Positions 28,232 through 53,719 of a DNA stretch of 64,000 nt are shown here, piece by piece. Position numbers and translations under genes: made by a program. Each line of letters begins with the position of its first letter. Within the stretch, counting starts at the first letter, position 1. The notes under the pieces were generated by a model. It did not search any database and was not told the DNA's origin. It worked only from the letters and a program-made list of their open reading frames with translations. This stretch comes from Verrucomicrobiia bacterium (lineage in GTDB: Bacteria > Acidobacteriota > Terriglobia > Acidiferrales > UBA7541): contig DATHRB010000053.1 in assembly GCA_035482155.1 (NCBI GenBank), forward strand, positions 17,620-81,619, given 5' to 3'.

Positions 28232-31219
28232 CTACGAACTCAATGCCTCTTCATGACTCGGGCAAATCGGCCGGTAAGCACAATTGCGGCACAGGTACCC
28301 CGGCTTTGGCGGAAACTGTCCGGCGCGAATGTCCTCCGCGACCTCCTGCACAATTTTCTGCGCATCTTGCAGTTGCTTGGCATCTCGCGTTGTCGCCTGT
28401 ATCTGATTATTTTGCAGGTAATGAAACACCAGCCGCACAGGGTTCCATTCGAATATCTCCACCGCCGCCAGCGCGTAAATGCTCAACTGCAAATCCCGCC
28501 GTGCATCCAGATCCTTCTTCGGCTTCCCGGTTTTGTAATCCACGATTTCCACGTTGTTACCGCCCAACGCATTCACCTGGTCAATGCGCCCGGCAATAAT
28601 CACGTTGTTCTCCATCGGCAATTCGAACGTCTTCTCCTGCTCCAGAATTTCCGGCAAACTCTCCAGCATCGCCGCGTGAAATACTTTCAGCTGTTCCAGC
28701 CCATCTTTCTTGTATTCGTTCTCCTGATAATCGTCCTCAAACCCCGCCGATTTCCATTCCGTCTCAAATATTCGTTGCACTTCCTCGAATGGCAACTTGT
28801 TGCCCTTGCGCAATTCCGCCAGCGTTCGCCTGATCGTGTCGTGCACCACCCGCCCAAACGTCAACGTCCCTCGCGGCCCTTCCTCCAGCGCCCATAGCCG
28901 CCCAAACAAATATTGCTGCGGGCATCTGCGGTAATTGTCCAGCGCCGAAGGGCTCAGCTTCAGCGGCTCCGGCGACGGGGGATGAAACGTTTCCGCCCAC
29001 GAAGCAATGCGCGAAAAAATTCGCGGCGGATCAATCGGCGCCGGAAACAATGAAGCCGCCATCGCGCTGCCGCTCGGAACCACATCACTCGGCACTCGCG
29101 CAGCCAGTCGTGGCGCCATCTGCACCACGTCCCGCCACTTCACCAGCGGATCCATCACAATGTCCTCGACAAAAGTAGGCACTTTGCCTTTTTTGTCCGT
29201 CAACGTGGTAATCGTCAGCCGTTCGCGCGCCCGCGTCAGCGCCACGTAAAACAGCCGCCGCTCTTCCTGAATGTGGAATTGCTCCGCGGGCGCGCCTTCT
29301 TTCATCAGCTCGGCAGGGAACTCAAACACCCGCGTCCGCTCCGACGCCGGAAACGCCTTGTTATTCAGCCGGAGCAAAAACACGTGCGGAAACTCCAGCC
29401 CCTTCGCGCCGTGTACCGTCATCAACTGCACCGCATCGCCCGGAACATCGTCTTCCAGGCTCACCGTCCCGCCCGCCTGATCGAAATAATCCAGATACTC
29501 CAAAAACTCCGCTAGCCCCTTCGTATCGCTTTTCGGCTCCCACTCCACAACAAATTCCGCCAGCCGCGTCACATATTTGCGATCCTGCACCGCCGCGCGC
29601 TCGCGAATTTCCAACCAGTCGATCACCGATCCCAGAATTTGTTTCGCGCTCCTCCGGTTAATTGTCTTTCGTTGCGCCAAAAGAAAATCCAGCAGCACCT
29701 GTACCGCCGCTTGTGACGCATCAAACGCCAGTTCCGTCTGCGGTGCCTGCAAAATATCGATCAGCGCGGCCCCGCGTTTCTTCGAAGCCCGCTGCGTCAG
29801 CCTCACCAAATCTTCCGGCTCCATATGCCAAGCCGGCGCCGCCAACACCCGTGCGCACGCCACATCGTCGTATGGCTGCGCGATCAGCCGTAGGTACGCC
29901 AGTACATCCCGCACCAACGGATGCTCCAGAATCGAAAGCTTGCTGATCACAAATGGAATCTTTGCCCGCGAAAGCTCTTCCACCAGATGATCGCGATGCG
30001 CGTGTTGCCGGTACAACACCGCGAAATCCTTCCAGCGGTGTCCCGCGCGGTGCAGCCGTTGCAGTTCCCCCGTAACCCACCGCGACTCATCATCCGCATT
30101 GGCCAGTTCCGCGATGCGAATTTTCTCACCCTCGGGGTGCGGCGTCGTCAGTACCTTGGGAGGAAAGCGTTCGCTGCGCGCGTTTTGTCCGATAACGTGC
30201 GTCGCCACCCGCAAAATATTCGGCGTGGACCGGTAATTCTCCGTCAACGTCACGCGATACCGGCTGGGATCGTCCGTATCCTTTAACCCCGCGAATCTCT
30301 TTTCAAAAATGGCAAAGCTCGCGAACGAAGCTCCGCGAAAACGGTAAATGGCCTGGTCGTTGTCGCCCACCACAAAAATATTTCGCGGCTCCGCGCACAA
30401 CAGATCTAGCAGCTCGATTTGCGCGATATTTGTATCCTGAAACTCGTCCACCAGGATGTAGCGGTAACGCTGTCGCAGTTTTTCTCGCAGCGCCGCATCT
30501 TTTTGCAGCAGTTCCACCGCGCCGGTAATCAGCGAATTAATTGATACGCGATTCTTCGCGCGCAGCAATCCCTCGCTGGCCCCGTAAGCCCGCGCAATCT
30601 CCTGTTGCAGCGCCACCTGGTCGGCGCGCTCCGCGTACGTATCCTCGTCCAGCTCCCCGCGCTCTGCTTCCAGTTTCGTCCCTAATCCATCCGCATAGCG
30701 CTGGAAGTCTTCGCAGGACACGAGCTCGTCCTGGCAGCGGCTGAAAAATTCCAGAAAATCATTCAGGAACTGTCCCGGGTCCGGCAGCCGCCGGTATTTC
30801 TCCAGCCGCAGCCGCGCCAAATTCCGCCGCAATAAAATCCAGTGATCGCATTTATCCAGAATCACCCGGCCGGGATCCAGTTCCACCAGCAGCGCCTCGC
30901 AAAACGAATGAAACGTCGCCAGCGTGACGTCCTTGCCCCGCTCTCCCACCGCCTTCACCACCCGCGCCTTCATCTCCCCGGCCGCCTTCTTGGTAAAAGT
31001 CAGCCCCAGAATATTTTCGCCCGTAATCGATGCATCATTCTCCAGCAGGTGCCGGATCCGCTCCGTAATCACCCGCGTCTTCCCCGTCCCCGCCCCCGCA
31101 ATCACCAGCAGTGGCCCCGCCCCATGCGTAATCGCGCGCCGCTGCGTCTCATTCACACCCAGCAGGGGACTAGCCGTCGCCGGCAGCCCCATTTCAAAAA
31201 GTGTAGCCATCCGTTCCAT
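28232..31219 (-). CDS. UvrD/PcrA-family SF1 helicase fused to a C-terminal PD-(D/E)XK (RecB/AddB/Cas4-like) nuclease
   Basis: Walker A AGAGTGKT, LVDEFQD, VGDNDQAIYRFRGA, TVHGAKGLEF, EERRLFYVALTRAR; nuclease GRIDQV, DYKTG, QLSIY; Cys in YRRCPQ plus CRNCAYRPIC. Confidence 0.92.
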   Translation of the reverse strand: MERMATLFEMGLPATASPLLGVNETQRRAITHGAGPLLVIAGAGTGKTRVITERIRHLLENDASITGENILGLTFTKKAAGEMKARVVKAVGERGKDVTLATFHSFCEALLVELDPGRVILDKCDHWILLRRNLARLRLEKYRRLPDPGQFLNDFLEFFSRCQDELVSCEDFQRYADGLGTKLEAERGELDEDTYAERADQVALQQEIARAYGASEGLLRAKNRVSINSLITGAVELLQKDAALREKLRQRYRYILVDEFQDTNIAQIELLDLLCAEPRNIFVVGDNDQAIYRFRGASFASFAIFEKRFAGLKDTDDPSRYRVTLTENYRSTPNILRVATHVIGQNARSERFPPKVLTTPHPEGEKIRIAELANADDESRWVTGELQRLHRAGHRWKDFAVLYRQHAHRDHLVEELSRAKIPFVISKLSILEHPLVRDVLAYLRLIAQPYDDVACARVLAAPAWHMEPEDLVRLTQRASKKRGAALIDILQAPQTELAFDASQAAVQVLLDFLLAQRKTINRRSAKQILGSVIDWLEIRERAAVQDRKYVTRLAEFVVEWEPKSDTKGLAEFLEYLDYFDQAGGTVSLEDDVPGDAVQLMTVHGAKGLEFPHVFLLRLNNKAFPASERTRVFEFPAELMKEGAPAEQFHIQEERRLFYVALTRARERLTITTLTDKKGKVPTFVEDIVMDPLVKWRDVVQMAPRLAARVPSDVVPSGSAMAASLFPAPIDPPRIFSRIASWAETFHPPSPEPLKLSPSALDNYRRCPQQYLFGRLWALEEGPRGTLTFGRVVHDTIRRTLAELRKGNKLPFEEVQRIFETEWKSAGFEDDYQENEYKKDGLEQLKVFHAAMLESLPEILEQEKTFELPMENNVIIAGRIDQVNALGGNNVEIVDYKTGKPKKDLDARRDLQLSIYALAAVEIFEWNPVRLVFHYLQNNQIQATTRDAKQLQDAQKIVQEVAEDIRAGQFPPKPGYLCRNCAYRPICPSHEEALSS

Positions 31220-31235
31220 AGTCTATCCAATTGCT

Positions 31236-31265
31236 AGGCGAAGAGGAAGCGAAGCCACGATGAAC
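31236..31265 (-). promoter_or_regulatory. Candidate LexA (SOS) box upstream of the helicase-nuclease
   Basis: Minus strand GTTCAT-CGTGG-CTTCGC-TTCCT-CTTCGC-CT with 11-bp periodicity; closely matches the lexA promoter repeat. Confidence 0.55.
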
Positions 31266-35605: not shown

Positions 35606-36790
35606 ATGGAAACACCAGTAATTCTCAGCGCCGTTCGCACCCCGGTAGGAAAATTTCAGGGCGGCCTCTCAAGTTTTTCCGCAGTTGATTTGGGTTCCAA
35701 AGCAGTTGCCGAAGCAGTCCGTCGCGCCGAACTCGACGCCAAACAAATTGACGAAGCCATCCTCGGTAACGTAGTCCAAGCCGGTCTGGGTCAGAATCCT
35801 GCACGCCAGGCAGCGTTAAAAGGTGGCCTCGATCCTCGCGTCGCTGCCATGACCATCAACAAAGTGTGCGGCTCCGGCCTGAAGGCGGTCGCACTCGCAG
35901 CTCAAGCTGTGCAACTAGGCGAATCCGAAATCGTCGTCGCAGGCGGCATGGAGTCCATGTCCAATTGCCCCTATCTACTTCCCCAAGCTCGCACCGGATA
36001 TCGAATAGGCGATGGCAAACTCGTTGACTCCATGATTCACGACGGCCTGTGGGATGCCTACGAAGACTTCCACATGGGCATGACCGGCGAATTGGTCGCA
36101 GAAAAATACAAGATCACCCGCGACGAGCAGGATCGTTTTGCATTTGAAAGTCACCAGAAAGCCGTGCGCGCGCGCAAATCCTGCTTCTTTGAAGCACAAA
36201 TTCTTCCCATCGAAGTCCCGCAAAAAAAAGGCTCTGCAATCATGATCAAATACGATGAATCCCCACGCGAAGACACGTCCATGGAAGCCCTCGCGAAATT
36301 AAAACCCGCCTTCAAAAAAGATGGAACAGTCACCGCAGGCAACGCCCCAGGCACAAACGATGGAGCCGCAGCAGTAATCGTCACCAGCGAACGCCGCGCC
36401 CAATCGCTAAACAAAAAACCGATGGCCCGCATCGTCGCTCAAGCCGTCAGCGGAGTCGAACCCAAGTGGGTCATGATGGCCCCGGTGGAAGCCGTGGAAA
36501 AACTTCTGACCAAAACCGGCTGGAACCGCGATAAAGACGTCGACCTCGTCGAACTCAACGAAGCCTTCGCCGTCGCTGCCATCGCGGTCACGCGCCAATT
36601 GCGCCTCAACCCCGAAAAAGTAAACGTAAACGGCGGCGCCGTCGCCATCGGACATCCCATCGGCGCCTCAGGAGCCCGCATCCTCGTCACCCTGCTCTAC
36701 GAATTGCAACGCCGCAACCTGAAACGCGGAATCGCCGCCCTCTGCCTTGGCGGAGGCAACGCCGTAGCCCTCGCCCTTGAAATGATGTAG
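35606..36790 (+). CDS. Acetyl-CoA C-acetyltransferase (thiolase)
   Basis: [51 protein letters not shown]. Start reassigned to ATG 35606. Confidence 0.94.
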
Positions 36791-36892
36791 CAGCAAAAAC
36801 AGAAAATCGCGGGGGCTAGAACTTAACCAATCACGCTACGATTTGAAAAATCACGGAGGGTACGTACTCAGAAATTGCGCGGATTTAACAAA

Positions 36893-36940
36893 CACGGAGG
36901 GTGCCCCTCACTCGATTTGTAGGGTGGGTCTTGGGGTTGT
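36893..36940 (+). repeat. REP-like palindromic element, copy B (partial CACGGAGGGT copy at about 36852)
   Basis: CACGGAGGGTGCCCCTCACTCGATTTGTAGGGTGGGTCTTGGGGTTGT. Confidence 0.7.
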
Positions 36941-36980
36941 TCTTTGCTTCTAAAGTTTGGGGTTTCGTTGCAGTGGGTTC

Positions 36981-37631
36981 TTATACGGAACTGCGGACGA
37001 TCGGCGCATCATTCACCGACGAACCCCCCGCAACAGCCCCCGGCGCCAATTCGCAGGCGCAGTACGGGCAGAATTTATCCGTCTCTCCAACTTCGCGTTT
37101 GCATTGCGGGCAAGTTGGCTGGAGATTGCATTTGCAGTTAGGACAGAAATTAAATCGCGCCCCAACCGTCGCTCCGCATTGCGGGCAGTTATACGGCAGC
37201 GGCTCGCGCATTAAGAAGTAAATAAAAAATCCAAGCGCCAGTGACTGTGACAACACCACGACGAGAATGGTCCACAGCGCCGAGTTCATCCCCCGCCGCT
37301 TGGCGTCGCGATTTACATATCCGAAACCTAGCAGCATGGCCGCCAGCGGGATGCTCGCGGCAGTAACAATTCCCGCGACGCTGAGCACCGAAAGCGCGGG
37401 GTTATTGGGGAATGGCCACATTTCGCCTTCTGGCGTGCTGAGTGCATGCGCATAAAAATTAGCTATAAAAAACGCTACCTGCGCGATTACGAAAAAAAAG
37501 ATGACCATCACGATCAGCCATTTCGGAATGATGCGTAGCTCATCGCGAAATCGCGTCTTCTCTCGAGTGCGGCGAAAACGAATCCGCCTCAATTTTTCAC
37601 TGAACGTGCTGTTAACTTGTAGATCCGACAT
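36981..37631 (-). CDS. Membrane protein with a C-terminal double zinc ribbon
   Basis: Hydrophobic helices, YVNRDAKRRGM, four CxxC pairs (CPQC, CPNC, CPQC, CPYC). Confidence 0.8.
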   Translation of the reverse strand: MSDLQVNSTFSEKLRRIRFRRTREKTRFRDELRIIPKWLIVMVIFFFVIAQVAFFIANFYAHALSTPEGEMWPFPNNPALSVLSVAGIVTAASIPLAAMLLGFGYVNRDAKRRGMNSALWTILVVVLSQSLALGFFIYFLMREPLPYNCPQCGATVGARFNFCPNCKCNLQPTCPQCKREVGETDKFCPYCACELAPGAVAGGSSVNDAPIVRSSV

Positions 37632-37676
37632 GCTGTGACCTCATCGATTCCAAAAAAGATTGCACGCCAAATTTTA

Positions 37677-38174
37677 TTAGCTGCGCTGCAGCCAGTAACT
37701 CTCGCCGCTTTGTTTTTCGTGCTCAGAGAGCAGCACGACCGCAGCGATCAAAGCAGGCACTGCCCACCACAAACCAAATCCCATTTCCCAAACCAACTTT
37801 GGAACGCCGGTTTGTTCTCCGAGCCAGGCAAAGAACCGCCACACAAACGGCGCGCTGGCCACACCGGTGGCCCACGAAATGCCCGCGGCAATCCACAGCA
37901 CGCGGCGGCGCGGTTCGTGCTGGCGAAGTTGTTGCGCGCGCAAACTTACACGGAATTGTGTGCGCTCCGCCAACCCTGCAGGTAACGCGATCGGCATGGT
38001 TTGTAATGAACGCAAAGCCACTGAAGTCTTGCGAGCGAAATCCGCGCAGCTGTCGCACTCCTGCAAATGTGCGGCAAGCCAGGCGTTCTCTGACGAAGAG
38101 ATGCCTTCGATGCGCTCCTGCGAGATCAGTTGCAGCGCCCGCTCATGAACATTTTCATGAATATTTTCGCTCAT
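37677..38174 (-). CDS. Zinc-finger (ZAS/zf-HC2) transmembrane anti-sigma factor
   Basis: HLQECDSC (HxxxCxxC), two TM segments; 4-nt overlap with the ECF sigma gene. Confidence 0.8.
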   Translation of the reverse strand: MSENIHENVHERALQLISQERIEGISSSENAWLAAHLQECDSCADFARKTSVALRSLQTMPIALPAGLAERTQFRVSLRAQQLRQHEPRRRVLWIAAGISWATGVASAPFVWRFFAWLGEQTGVPKLVWEMGFGLWWAVPALIAAVVLLSEHEKQSGESYWLQRS

Positions 38175-38821
38175 GAAATTCCGGCCTCCAGCGTGCCGCG
38201 CAAAGCGTCCAGTCCTCTATACAGGCGAGATTTCACAGTAGACGGTGGAGTGCCCAGCACTCCTGCGATTTCGTCGATTTGCAATTCTTCCTGAAAACGC
38301 AGGAGCAGCACTTCGCGATAAATGGCGGGAATCTGCTGAAGCGCGCCCTGCACTTGCGTGTCCTGTTCTGAATTCAAAATTGCCTGCAGTGCAGACGCGG
38401 AGCGTTCGTCTTTTACTTGTAGCGGATGTGCCTGCTCCGAATCGGTGAGCGCGTCCAGACTTTGCACTTTTCGCTGGCGCTGCCAATCGATCACCAGGTT
38501 GCGTGCGATGGCAAACAGCCAACCTTCAAAGCGGGATTTTCCGTCGTACTGATGTCCCCGCTCCAGAACGCGAATCCAGGTTTCCTGGAAAAAATCTTCG
38601 GCGCGCGTGCGATCGCCGCTGATGTACACCAAATAACGAAACAAGCGGAATTGATATTGCTCGATCAGCCGGTCCAGCAAATCCGGATCGCGCCGCTGCA
38701 GGCCCTGCGCCAGTGCTTTATTTTCGTCTTTCATCAACGCAGAGAACGCACAGGTCGGCAAAGCCCGGGCAGGCCACGCATTTTGCTTATGAATCGCCGG
38801 AAATAGAAACGTCGCGCTCAT
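38171..38821 (-). CDS. ECF RNA polymerase sigma factor
   Basis: AEDFFQETW, WLFAIARNLVID, YREVLLLRF, TVKSRLYRG. Confidence 0.92.
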   Translation of the reverse strand: MSATFLFPAIHKQNAWPARALPTCAFSALMKDENKALAQGLQRRDPDLLDRLIEQYQFRLFRYLVYISGDRTRAEDFFQETWIRVLERGHQYDGKSRFEGWLFAIARNLVIDWQRQRKVQSLDALTDSEQAHPLQVKDERSASALQAILNSEQDTQVQGALQQIPAIYREVLLLRFQEELQIDEIAGVLGTPPSTVKSRLYRGLDALRGTLEAGIS

Positions 38822-39054
38822 TGTACAGAGAACTACGCGCCAGCCAGGAGAAAAGACTCAAGTAGCTGAACAGGCCTTTAGTTCGTTTAACTTACGGCCA
38901 CTATGAATACCTTGGCCGCCTGCCGGATTGGCGGCTTGTATAGTAAACTTACTTGGCGATGTTCACTTGTCGAGCGCGACAGACTGGCCCGGTTTTTTCG
39001 TCTCGTAGCATAGAACCCGCATAGAGAAATGCAACCACTTACAGCGAGGCAGGC

Positions 39055-39582
39055 ATGTCTGATTTTGGCAACGAAGGTTCTTTTGTAATTCTCTGGGCCG
39101 GAGAAAATCCTTCCGTGCATGTGAATCTGATCGAGAAGCTGGAGGCTAACGGAATCGCCTTCAATGATATGTCCTTGGGCGACGACGAAGTTGCCCCTAC
39201 CGCGGATCCTTTGCCCATCGACTGGAAACCCCGCTTTGGATTTGAAGTTACCGTGTTGTCCACGGACTATCCTGCAGCGAAAGAACTCCTTGATGATCTG
39301 CTGGAACGTGAACCAGAGAACTTAGAGATTCCCGCGCAGCCGGAAGTGGTCGATCCGTCAACCATGACACCTAAAGCAAATGACGCGCCGGCTACATTGA
39401 GGGTCTGGAAGGGAACAGACCCCAAGCTTGCGCAGTTCCTGACCAGCGCGCTGAGCGAGAACAATCTCGTCGCACGCGTCGCCAATGAAGCGGGATCCAC
39501 CGCAATTTATGTGGCGGAAGGGAATCAGGCGCGGGCCCTGGAAATTGTCCGCGAAGTAACGCAAGGCGCTCCTCCGAAATAA
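39055..39582 (+). CDS. Hypothetical protein, possibly tandem DUF2007-like domains
   Basis: Two repeats of ..L...L..NGI/NNL...A.ELL/ALEIV; 2-nt gap to the next gene. Confidence 0.55.
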
Positions 39583-39584
39583 GC

Positions 39585-40475
39585 ATGAGCATAGACAACA
39601 TCAAGACTGTCGCGGTGCTCGGCGCAGGCACAATGGGTAACGGCATCGCGCACGTCTTTGCGCGCTCCGGCTATAAAGTGATTTTGCGAGATGTGGAACA
39701 GCGCTTCGTCGACCGTGGCATGGACACGATCGGCCAGAATCTGGGCCGCGAAGTAAAGAAGGGCAAAATCACTGAAGCAGAGCGCGTCAGCACGCTGGAG
39801 CGATTGCTGCCTGTCACCGATGTCGCCAATATCGCTGCGGCCGATTTTCTGGTGGAAGCCGTTCCGGAAAAAATTGAAATAAAACGCGCTGTCCTGGCGG
39901 ATGCTGACTGGCTTTTGCGCGACGATGTGATTATCGCCAGCAATACGTCGTCTATTTCTATGACCACGCTGGCCTCGTTAACGCGCCGGCCGGAGCGCTT
40001 CGTGGGGATGCACTTCATGAACCCCGTGCCGGTGATGGCCTTGGTGGAAGTGATTCGCGCGCTGCAAACCAGCGATGCCACTTTTCAAATCACGATGGCG
40101 CTTGCCGAAAAGTTGGGCAAGAAGCCAATCGCGGTGAATGACGCTCCCGGCTTCGTATCCAACCGCGTGCTGATGCCACTGATCAACGAAGCGGCCTATT
40201 GCGTGATGGAAGGCGTGGCGACTGCGGAATCCGTGGACGCGGTGATGAAAGTAGGGATGAACCACCCGATGGGGCCGCTCGAACTGGCTGATTTTATTGG
40301 GTTAGATGTGTGCGTCGACATTATGCACGTGTTGCAGGAAGGATTGGGCGATCCAAAGTACCGCGCCTGCCCGCTTTTAAAAAAATATGTGGCGGCAGGC
40401 TGGATGGGGCGCAAGAGCGGCAGGGGTTTCTATAGTTACGTGGATGCCGCCCAATCCAAAAGCGCCTTAAAATAG
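39585..40475 (+). CDS. 3-hydroxybutyryl-CoA dehydrogenase
   Basis: [51 protein letters not shown]. Confidence 0.92.
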
Positions 40476-40476
40476 T

Positions 40477-40507
40477 ATTTGCTTTTTGTTCGCCTCGATG
40501 TTATTTT
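40477..40507 (+). promoter_or_regulatory. Candidate recA promoter with an overlapping degenerate LexA box
   Basis: TTGCTT(40479)-N17-TATTTT(40502) with an extended TG; overlapped by ATTTGC-TTTTT-GTTCGC-CT. Confidence 0.5.
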
Positions 40508-40734: not shown

Positions 40735-41859
40735 ATGGCAGACGATAGAGCAAAGCTGCTGGAAGCGGCCATATCGCAGATTGAAAAGTCCTACGGGAAG
40801 GGTTCTATCATGCGGCTGGGCAGCCGCGATGTGCTGGTGCCGGTCAGTGTGATCCCCAGCGGCTGCCTATCTATTGATGCGGCGCTCGGCGTGGGTGGCT
40901 TTCCCCGCGGACGGGTGATTGAAATTTATGGCCCGGAATCTGGCGGCAAGACCACCATGACACTGCACGTCATCGCGGAAGCGCAAAAACTCGGCGGCCA
41001 GGCGGCGTTTATCGACGCAGAACACGCGCTCGATCCGGTGTACGCGCGGAAGCTGGGCGTGGACGTGGATAACCTGTTGGTGTCGCAGCCGGACAATGGC
41101 GAGCAAGCGCTGGAAATTGCGGAAGCGCTGATTCGTTCGGGCGGCGTAGACGTCGTGGTGGTCGACTCGGTGGCTGCGCTGGTGCCTAAAGCTGAATTGG
41201 AAGGCGAAATGGGCGACCCGCAGATGGGTCTGCAGGCGCGGTTGATGTCGCAGGCGCTGCGCAAGCTGACCGCTATCGTTTCCAAGTCGCGCACCTGCCT
41301 GATTTTCATCAACCAGATCCGCGAAAAAATTGGCGTGATGTTTGGCAATCCGGAAACCACCACGGGCGGCCGGGCTTTGAAGTTTTATGCCTCCATGCGC
41401 GTGGATATCCGGCGTATTCAGGCGATCAAGGACGGCGATAAAGTGGTGGGTTCGCGCACGCGCGCCAAAATCGTAAAAAATAAAGTGGCCGCGCCTTTCC
41501 GCGAAGCGGAGTTCGACATCATCTATGGCGAAGGTATTTCTCGCGAAGGCGATCTGATTGATATCGGCGTGGATCGCGGTGTGCTGGAAAAGAGTGGCAC
41601 GTGGATCAGCTTCGGCAGCGAGCGCATGGGGCAGGGCCGCGAGAATGCGCGCACCTTCCTGAAAGAAAACAAGGATGTACGCGACAAACTGGAATTAGCT
41701 CTGCGTAAAAAGCTTGAAATAGCGATTCCCGTCAATTCAAATTCCGCTGAACCCGCGCCCAACGGACACGCGCCTCACGCACAAGCGGATAAGCCGCCAG
41801 TAAAAACCACGGCCGCGGCCGCTGGCGCGGACGCTTCACGGGGCCGCCCGAGTCGATAG
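40735..41859 (+). CDS. recA: Recombinase RecA
   Basis: [43 protein letters not shown]; no intein seen. Confidence 0.98.
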
Positions 41860-53000: not shown

Positions 53001-53035
53001 TTTCGCTTGACGTTCGCTTTTTTTTCGCCTAAATT
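53001..53035 (+). promoter_or_regulatory. lexA promoter with a tandem LexA box
   Basis: TTTCGC-TTGAC-GTTCGC-TTTTT-TTTCGC in 11-bp phase, overlapping TTGACG(53007)-N17-TAAATT(53030). Confidence 0.75.
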
Positions 53036-53095: not shown

Positions 53096-53719
53096 ATGGC
53101 CCTGACCAAGCGTCAAAAAGAGGTTCTGGATTATTTGGTTTCGTTTGAAACGAAACACGGTTACGCGCCGAGCTTTGAAGAAATTGGCAAAGGGTTGAAG
53201 TTGACTTCATTGGCGACCGTTCATAAACACATCACCACGCTGGAAAAGAAAGGTTTCATTCGTCGCGGTTATAACCAGAGTCGATCCATCGAAATTCTGC
53301 GACTTCCGAAACCCGTAAAAGACCAGGTCATGGACCGAAGGATTCAGGAGCTGCCGCTAGTTGGACGCATTGCAGCGGGGCGGCCGCTGGAGGCGGTTGA
53401 GGAGCGAGAAACTTTGTCGCTCGGGGACTTCGCGCGCGGTGGAAATTCTTTCGTGCTGCAGGTTAAGGGCACTTCCATGATTGAAGATCACATCATGGAT
53501 GGCGATTACGTGGTGTGTGAGCAGACGCAAGTGGCGAATGCGGGCGACATCGTGGTGGCACTGATCGGCGAGGATGAGGCGACCTTGAAGCGTTTTTACC
53601 GCGAAGGGGCAGGGAAGATTCGCTTGCAGCCGGCCAATTCCGAAATGGGACCGATTATCGTGGCGGCCAATGACGTTAAGATCCAGGGCCGGGTGATTGG
53701 CGTTCTGAGAAAATATTAG
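53096..53719 (+). CDS. lexA: SOS repressor LexA
   Basis: LTKRQKEVL, PSFEEI, Ala-Gly cleavage site IAAG, catalytic Ser (GTSM) and Lys (TLKR); GGAGG SD. Confidence 0.97.
   Translation: MALTKRQKEVLDYLVSFETKHGYAPSFEEIGKGLKLTSLATVHKHITTLEKKGFIRRGYNQSRSIEILRLPKPVKDQVMDRRIQELPLVGRIAAGRPLEAVEERETLSLGDFARGGNSFVLQVKGTSMIEDHIMDGDYVVCEQTQVANAGDIVVALIGEDEATLKRFYREGAGKIRLQPANSEMGPIIVAANDVKIQGRVIGVLRKY

Follow-up and report, generated by a model that had tools for sequence, protein, structure and literature searches.

A predicted LexA operator upstream of a UvrD-type helicase-nuclease gene in Candidatus Acidoferrum

Results

A helicase-nuclease gene in the neighborhood of recA and lexA

The 64,000-nucleotide stretch of DNA analyzed here (the window) comes from a metagenome-assembled genome of Candidatus Acidoferrum (Acidoferrales, Terriglobia, Acidobacteriota), which comprises 4.48 Mb in 84 contigs and is 97.6% complete. 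The window holds recA, lexA and a gene for a helicase fused to a nuclease, together with the short sequence elements listed in Table 1. In profile searches the helicase-nuclease matched PF00580, PF13361 and PF12705, all above their own cut-offs. For the motor the best match was PcrA (E = 7e-74), and the protein as a whole aligned with mycobacterial AdnA (7sjr_A residues 19-1040). It also matched addA models, yet it fell below every NCBIfam equivalog cut-off.

A partner subunit (AddB, AdnB or RecC/RecD) was sought across the 97.6%-complete genome and was not found. Nor did that genome yield a second PDDEXK_1 gene, the helicase-nuclease being the sole one, and its UvrD-family genes number two: the helicase-nuclease and one plain UvrD-like gene on contig C50. 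The single PDDEXK_1 gene and the two UvrD-family genes together suggest that the helicase-nuclease has no AddB/AdnB-type partner.

Throughout the genus the order helicase-nuclease, recA, lexA is kept in a span of about 20-40 kb. The three genes are packed into 9 kb in family f2 (G025:C52), and in family f3 the helicase and recA are divergent neighbors 2-3 kb apart. This conserved synteny with recA independently ties the enzyme to recombinational repair. We also considered a role as a defense-system helicase and rejected it: the PADLOC matches to GajB reflect the generic UvrD core, and the gene is a syntenic core gene beside recA across the order.

Three further observations concern the surroundings of the gene. 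Upstream of the helicase orthologues of family f3 (L022, L023, L026, L028 and L030) and f7 (L294) there is a conserved block, cgATTATAgg-N17-20-ggTCAAggaa; on the opposite strand it reads as a strong TTGACC...TATAAT promoter that faces the divergent neighbor, away from the helicase. In the window, GC skew flips from negative to positive at about 36000-40000, where its cumulative minimum lies; a minimum near recA would suit an origin or a terminus of replication. An Rfam search of the intergenic segment 31150-31800 gave nothing credible.

Table 1 Features of the window and high-scoring predicted boxes of the genome scan. Positions without a prefix are those of the window
Feature	Position	Strand	Score and rank in scan	Remarks
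UvrD/PcrA-type SF1 helicase with C-terminal PD-(D/E)XK (Cas4/AddB-like) nuclease	28232..31219	minus		995-aa ORF; domain matches
Probable true start ATG (M-A-T-L-F-E)	31208..31210	minus		Conserved in orthologues; no Shine-Dalgarno
-10-like hexamer TAGACT	31220..31225	minus		TAcCCT in most orthologues
Predicted LexA operator of helicase-nuclease, CTTCGCTTCCTCTTCGCCT	31236..31254	minus	19.7 bits, rank 13	Two direct TTCGCYT units, 11-bp period
TTCCTC, box spacer, inferred -35 position	31243..31248	minus		17 nt upstream of -10-like hexamer
"In-phase GTTC"	31262..31265	minus		Proposed third unit, unsupported
Predicted LexA box ATTTGCTTTTTGTTCGCCT	40477..40495	plus	24.5 bits, rank 5	240 nt upstream of recA
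recA	40735..41859	plus		TIGR02012, 551 bits
lexA operator GTTCGCTTTTTTTTCGCCT	53012..53030	plus	32.6 bits, rank 1	65 nt before lexA
lexA	53096..53719	plus		207 aa; TIGR00498, 201 bits
Predicted box, Rv2578c/PA0069-like radical-SAM gene	G000:C64:63823-63841		29.8 bits, rank 2
Predicted box, dnaB	G000:C82:80996-81014		26.6 bits, rank 3
Predicted box, imuA			25.5 bits, rank 4
Predicted box, 3' end of pgm, upstream of ftsB	G000:C39:15219-15237		24.4 bits, rank 6
Predicted box, second recA	G000:C28		24.4 bits, rank 7	3.7-kb contig (L077)
Predicted box, MrfA-like DEAD/MZB helicase	G000:C27:81808-81826		24.1 bits, rank 8
Predicted box, ymdB	G000:C3:35952-35970		23.9 bits, rank 9
Three further sites			ranks 10-12
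Predicted box on contig C50	G000:C50:107597-107615 (L076, 1001-1019)	minus	20.8 bits

The predicted box upstream of the helicase-nuclease

On the minus strand, positions 31265-31235 read GTTC-atcgtgg-CTTCGC-ttcct-CTTCGC-CTA. The box within this string, CTTCGCttcctCTTCGC, consists of two direct units with a TTC core at an 11-bp period. A literal G at position 1 is absent, and among the lexA sites of Acidoferrales the position before TTC is unconserved. The original prediction had placed the string about 17 nt upstream of the helicase ATG: the string is as described, and the distance is 15 nt to the first ATG (31219) and 25 nt from the end of the box to the likely start ATG (31210). The resemblance that it had seen to the site before lexA was borne out, the lexA counterpart, GTTCGCTTTTTTTTCGCCTA, being located at 53012-53031. 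We rejected the third, in-phase GTTC unit that it had proposed one period further upstream; that register scores only 1.0 bit, and across 53 unique orthologous promoters the stretch of 20 nt ahead of the box is unconserved. The sites of lexA, imuA and recA have T-rich spacers, unlike the TTCCTC of the helicase box.

The second ATG (31210) is conserved in orthologues, so the real start is probably there, and the annotated one, at the first ATG (31219), probably lies 9 nt too far upstream. To describe the region before this start we used 75 unique orthologous promoters with a conserved M-x-T-L-F-D/E start. A TAnnnT hexamer lies 5-10 nt before the conserved ATG in 69 of the 75, and exactly 9 nt before it in 50. 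A Shine-Dalgarno-like sequence precedes the helicase start in only 4/75 promoters, against 30/30 lexA genes. The lack of a Shine-Dalgarno sequence and, in most orthologues, a TAcCCT hexamer exactly 9 nt ahead of the ATG indicate that the mRNA is leaderless or nearly so.

Among the orthologues that bear the box, the spacing box-N10-TAnnnT-N9-ATG is fixed, typically with the hexamer in its TAcCCT form. The helicase box would thus span roughly -41 to -23 of the predicted promoter, with its 3' unit in the promoter spacer, TTCCTC at -35 and the 5' unit just upstream. As a -35 element TTCCTC is a poor match to TTGACA, and a consensus promoter scan of the minus strand returned no sigma-70 match. We also weighed a -10 immediately downstream of the box, the arrangement seen in lexA, and rejected it, because that hexamer is unconserved in orthologues whereas TAcCCT-N9-ATG is conserved.

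The operator motif in relatives

We compared the lexA promoters of 30 relatives from three families of the order. All 30 read cTTGACg-TTCGC-yTTyyn-TTCGCC-TAnAnT, so that TTCGC-N6-TTCGC sits exactly between -35 and -10, the classic autoregulatory position. In the window, the lexA operator likewise fills the 17-nt spacer between TTGACG (53007-53012) and TAAATT (53030-53035). The Ala-Gly cleavage site and the Ser/Lys dyad of LexA are invariant among the relatives, and a contig profile search with the LexA alignment gave matches from Acidoferrales only. The repeat unit in Acidoferrales is 7 nt long, TTCGCYT, with an 11-bp period and a free base before TTC. The literal form GTTC-N7-GTTC has 0 matches in the window, and the published short form is therefore too strict for this lineage.

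The same motif precedes other genes in these genomes. All 13 imuA orthologues found in relatives have a site of 24-30 bits that lies 20-75 nt upstream of the gene. For recA, a site was seen in about 10 of 22 congeners, at a distance of 240-370 nt upstream. In the host genome, imuA is followed by a Y-family-like gene and then by dnaE2 (1195 bits, above cut-off).

Genome-wide scan

We scanned both strands of the genome, about 9 million positions, with a weight matrix of 19 columns made from 15 distinct lexA sites of the 30 relatives. Because it was built from lexA sites alone, this matrix is independent of the helicase site. The helicase site is the weakest of the top 13 positions (Table 1). Thirteen positions reach at least its score; an exact iid model predicts 0.75 and 3-mer block shuffles 1.2. 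For the strict consensus TTCGCYT-N4-TTCGCYT we counted 6 matches where shuffles predict 0.2: an overlapping pair at lexA, and one each at dnaB, the radical-SAM gene, the helicase and the second recA. The bare form TTCGC-N6-TTCGC, in contrast, occurs 50 times in the 4.48-Mb genome, where a simple frequency calculation gives about 49 and 3-mer shuffles give 31. The bare motif being near background, only the extended unit is informative. It had been suggested with the original prediction that a motif at background frequency would count against it; in its extended form the motif stands far above background.

Two variants of the scan bear on the helicase site. With the spacer columns masked, it is tied among the three best positions genome-wide. 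An independent matrix made from the imuA and recA sites of relatives places it within the top 19.

The scan also drew attention to boxes outside the window. The one before dnaB is a perfect TTCGCYT-N4-TTCGCYT about 20 nt before the likely ATG; a replicative helicase would be an unusual SOS target. Boxes on contigs C64, C27 and C3, of 24-30 bits, precede the radical-SAM gene, the MrfA-like helicase and a ymdB-family phosphoesterase, respectively, and these three genes are probably further members of the regulon. About 85 nt downstream of the C50 box lies an unannotated 36-codon ORF (MPNKRNQERFKRSVVSEDIKAEIVAGSLLYAAALAQ), a candidate small SOS-induced protein. The C39 box lies inside the 3' end of the phosphoglucomutase gene, 244 nt upstream of ftsB/DivIC, and may be either a link to cell division or a false positive. 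The second recA is 77% identical to the recA of the window, a distance like that of family f3 recA, and has its own predicted box (ATTCGCTTTTTATTCGCTT) about 60 nt upstream; its contig probably represents contamination by another member of Acidoferrales.

Conservation of the box among helicase orthologues

Among the congeneric genomes with upstream sequence, 10 of 19 have a site of at least 13.9 bits before the helicase gene, in the same orientation. We extended the comparison to 77 helicase orthologues from metagenomes, with 66-97% protein identity. Sites of at least 10 bits were present in 40 of these 77, of at least 14 bits in 28 and of at least 19 bits in 18. Control windows of equal size inside genes gave 16, 1 and 0 of 756 at the same thresholds. 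The motif stands at a fixed position before about half of the congeneric orthologues. Each of the computational checks suggested with the original prediction, the genome scan and the comparison of orthologues, thereby came out in its favor.

Anchored on the box, 53 unique promoters gave the consensus TTCGCTTCCTCTTCGCC-tcgaAaTcCGc-TACcCT-N9-ATGgcnACnCTnTTtGA. The columns of the box are 87-100% conserved, the 20 nt upstream are at noise level and the flanks cannot be aligned. Neutral intergenic DNA is saturated at these divergences and the box is nevertheless conserved, which argues that it is under selection.

The distribution of the box is uneven. On the protein tree, each of the deep subclades of the genus includes members with a full box, and roughly half of the congeners have kept TTCCTCTTCGCC after decay of the 5' half-site. 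The best fit to this pattern is a single origin followed by at least ten losses within the genus. Outside the genus, sites were found at 0 of 29 orthologues, among them 0/10 in family f3 of the same order, 0/5 other genera of the same family and 0/13 loci from five other Terriglobia families. The lexA promoters of family f3 share the same operator, though its helicase orthologues have no site. The absence of sites outside the genus indicates that the regulatory link is a genus-level acquisition.

Discussion

The helicase box very probably binds LexA and is probably a functional operator that would make the gene inducible by DNA damage. LexA binding, the promoter assignment, repression and inducibility are all points that we infer from sequence. 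In the mechanism that we propose, the box would be an operator of the direct-repeat class known from Acidobacteriota and Alphaproteobacteria, with the unit TTCGCYT at an 11-bp period, overlapping the -35 of a near-leaderless promoter. As long as the DNA is undamaged, a LexA dimer bound to the box would impede RNA polymerase. Once damage had led RecA to stimulate the self-cleavage of LexA, the helicase promoter would be freed, and expression of the sole RecB/AddA/AdnAB-like helicase-nuclease of the cell would rise along with that of recA, lexA and imuA-imuB-dnaE2.

A wider proposal, to which we give slightly less credence than doubt, builds on this. The sole RecB-family end-processing enzyme of the organism might be a partner-less, single-chain protein made from a leaderless mRNA, which entered the LexA regulon in the ancestor of the genus. 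Double-strand-break resection would then be damage-inducible, unlike that by the constitutive RecBCD and AddAB of model bacteria, and the link would have been lost at least ten times.

Other explanations of the box can be put forward. The conserved block could be mainly a promoter element (-35 or UP-like) or the site of another, gene-specific regulator, with a likeness to the LexA motif that is partly coincidental and with weak or no binding. The TTCC spacer is specific to the helicase gene, TTCCTC lies exactly 17 nt from the conserved -10-like hexamer, and TTCCyC is conserved, together with the following TTCGCC, even where the 5' half-site has decayed. The persistence of TTCCTCTTCGCC after that loss suggests that the 3' part of the box probably has a role in the promoter as well, and may be kept for that role rather than for LexA. 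A promoter element, however, need not copy the two units of an operator, and about half of the orthologues have two 7-nt units without a mismatch to the LexA consensus, at the exact 11-bp period. The genome has only six such matches; apart from the helicase site they lie before lexA (two), recA, the radical-SAM repair-type gene and dnaB. We therefore consider it unlikely that the block is mainly something other than a LexA site. That the match is a matter of chance and has no function is hardly credible. About one position of such a score is expected per genome, and the bare TTCGC-N6-TTCGC is near background; against this stand the 28 of 77 metagenome orthologues with a site, compared with 1 of 756 controls, and the fixed distance to the -10 and the ATG, so that the conservation data already contradict chance.

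It is also conceivable that LexA binds the box and merely trims expression, the gene being effectively constitutive because end resection is needed before the SOS signal forms. The helicase site scores lowest among the top sites, and the repeated loss of the box, with at least 10 changes on the tree, suggests a weak selective value. From general knowledge, moreover, RecBCD and AddAB are not SOS genes in model species. The box has nonetheless survived deep divergences within the genus, over which neutral flanks have become saturated, and it overlaps the predicted core promoter region. On balance we find it very unlikely that LexA has so slight an effect here, and we prefer the reading in which the box is a damage-responsive operator.

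These results provide a testable candidate SOS regulon, comprising lexA, recA, imuAB-dnaE2 and the helicase-nuclease, for an abundant uncultured soil lineage. The MrfA-like helicase, the radical-SAM gene and dnaB are possible extra members. They also refine the acidobacterial LexA motif to TTCGCYT-N4-TTCGCYT, and they describe a regulon member that one genus appears to have gained and to have lost repeatedly since. Confirmation would make the helicase-nuclease a case of LexA control over an end-resection-type enzyme.

Comparison with known systems

Published LexA motifs include the direct repeat GTTC-N7-GTTC of Alphaproteobacteria, and Mazon et al. (2006, Microbiology 152:1109) report in their title a LexA box of Acidobacterium capsulatum. 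The motif described here resembles the box of Alphaproteobacteria and A. capsulatum in having two direct TTC-containing units at an 11-bp period, and in its placement on the lexA promoter and before recA and imuA-imuB-dnaE2. It differs from GTTC-N7-GTTC in that the first base is free in Acidoferrales (NTTC) and the unit extends 3' to TTCGCYT. The helicase site in particular has the form CTTC...CTTC and fails a literal search. The box of A. capsulatum is reportedly the same GTTC-N7-GTTC repeat as that of Alphaproteobacteria, as seen by EMSA.

The LexA-regulated imuA-imuB-dnaE2 mutagenesis cassette is the subject of Abella et al. 2004. It is present in the host with the same operator and serves as a positive control for the motif. 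The operator of the cassette differs from the helicase box in its T-rich spacer and its higher score (25-30 bits).

SF1 helicases are known to be under SOS control in other bacteria, uvrD in Escherichia coli and pcrA in Bacillus subtilis. The gene studied here resembles these in placing a UvrD/PcrA-family motor under predicted LexA control. It differs from them in that its helicase bears a C-terminal PD-(D/E)XK nuclease and is, by architecture, an end-processing enzyme. For the plain UvrD-like gene of the host on contig C50, no site of at least 12 bits was among the scan matches listed nearby.

With AdnAB, AddAB and RecBCD the helicase-nuclease shares a UvrD-like motor and a RecB-type nuclease in one chain, and it differs from them in having no partner subunit in the genome. 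To our knowledge, AdnAB, AddAB and RecBCD are not classical LexA targets in model species. None of these results overturns the current understanding of the SOS response. The operator class and the type of regulon are known, and what we describe is not a new kind of system; what is new is a predicted regulon member in a little-studied lineage.
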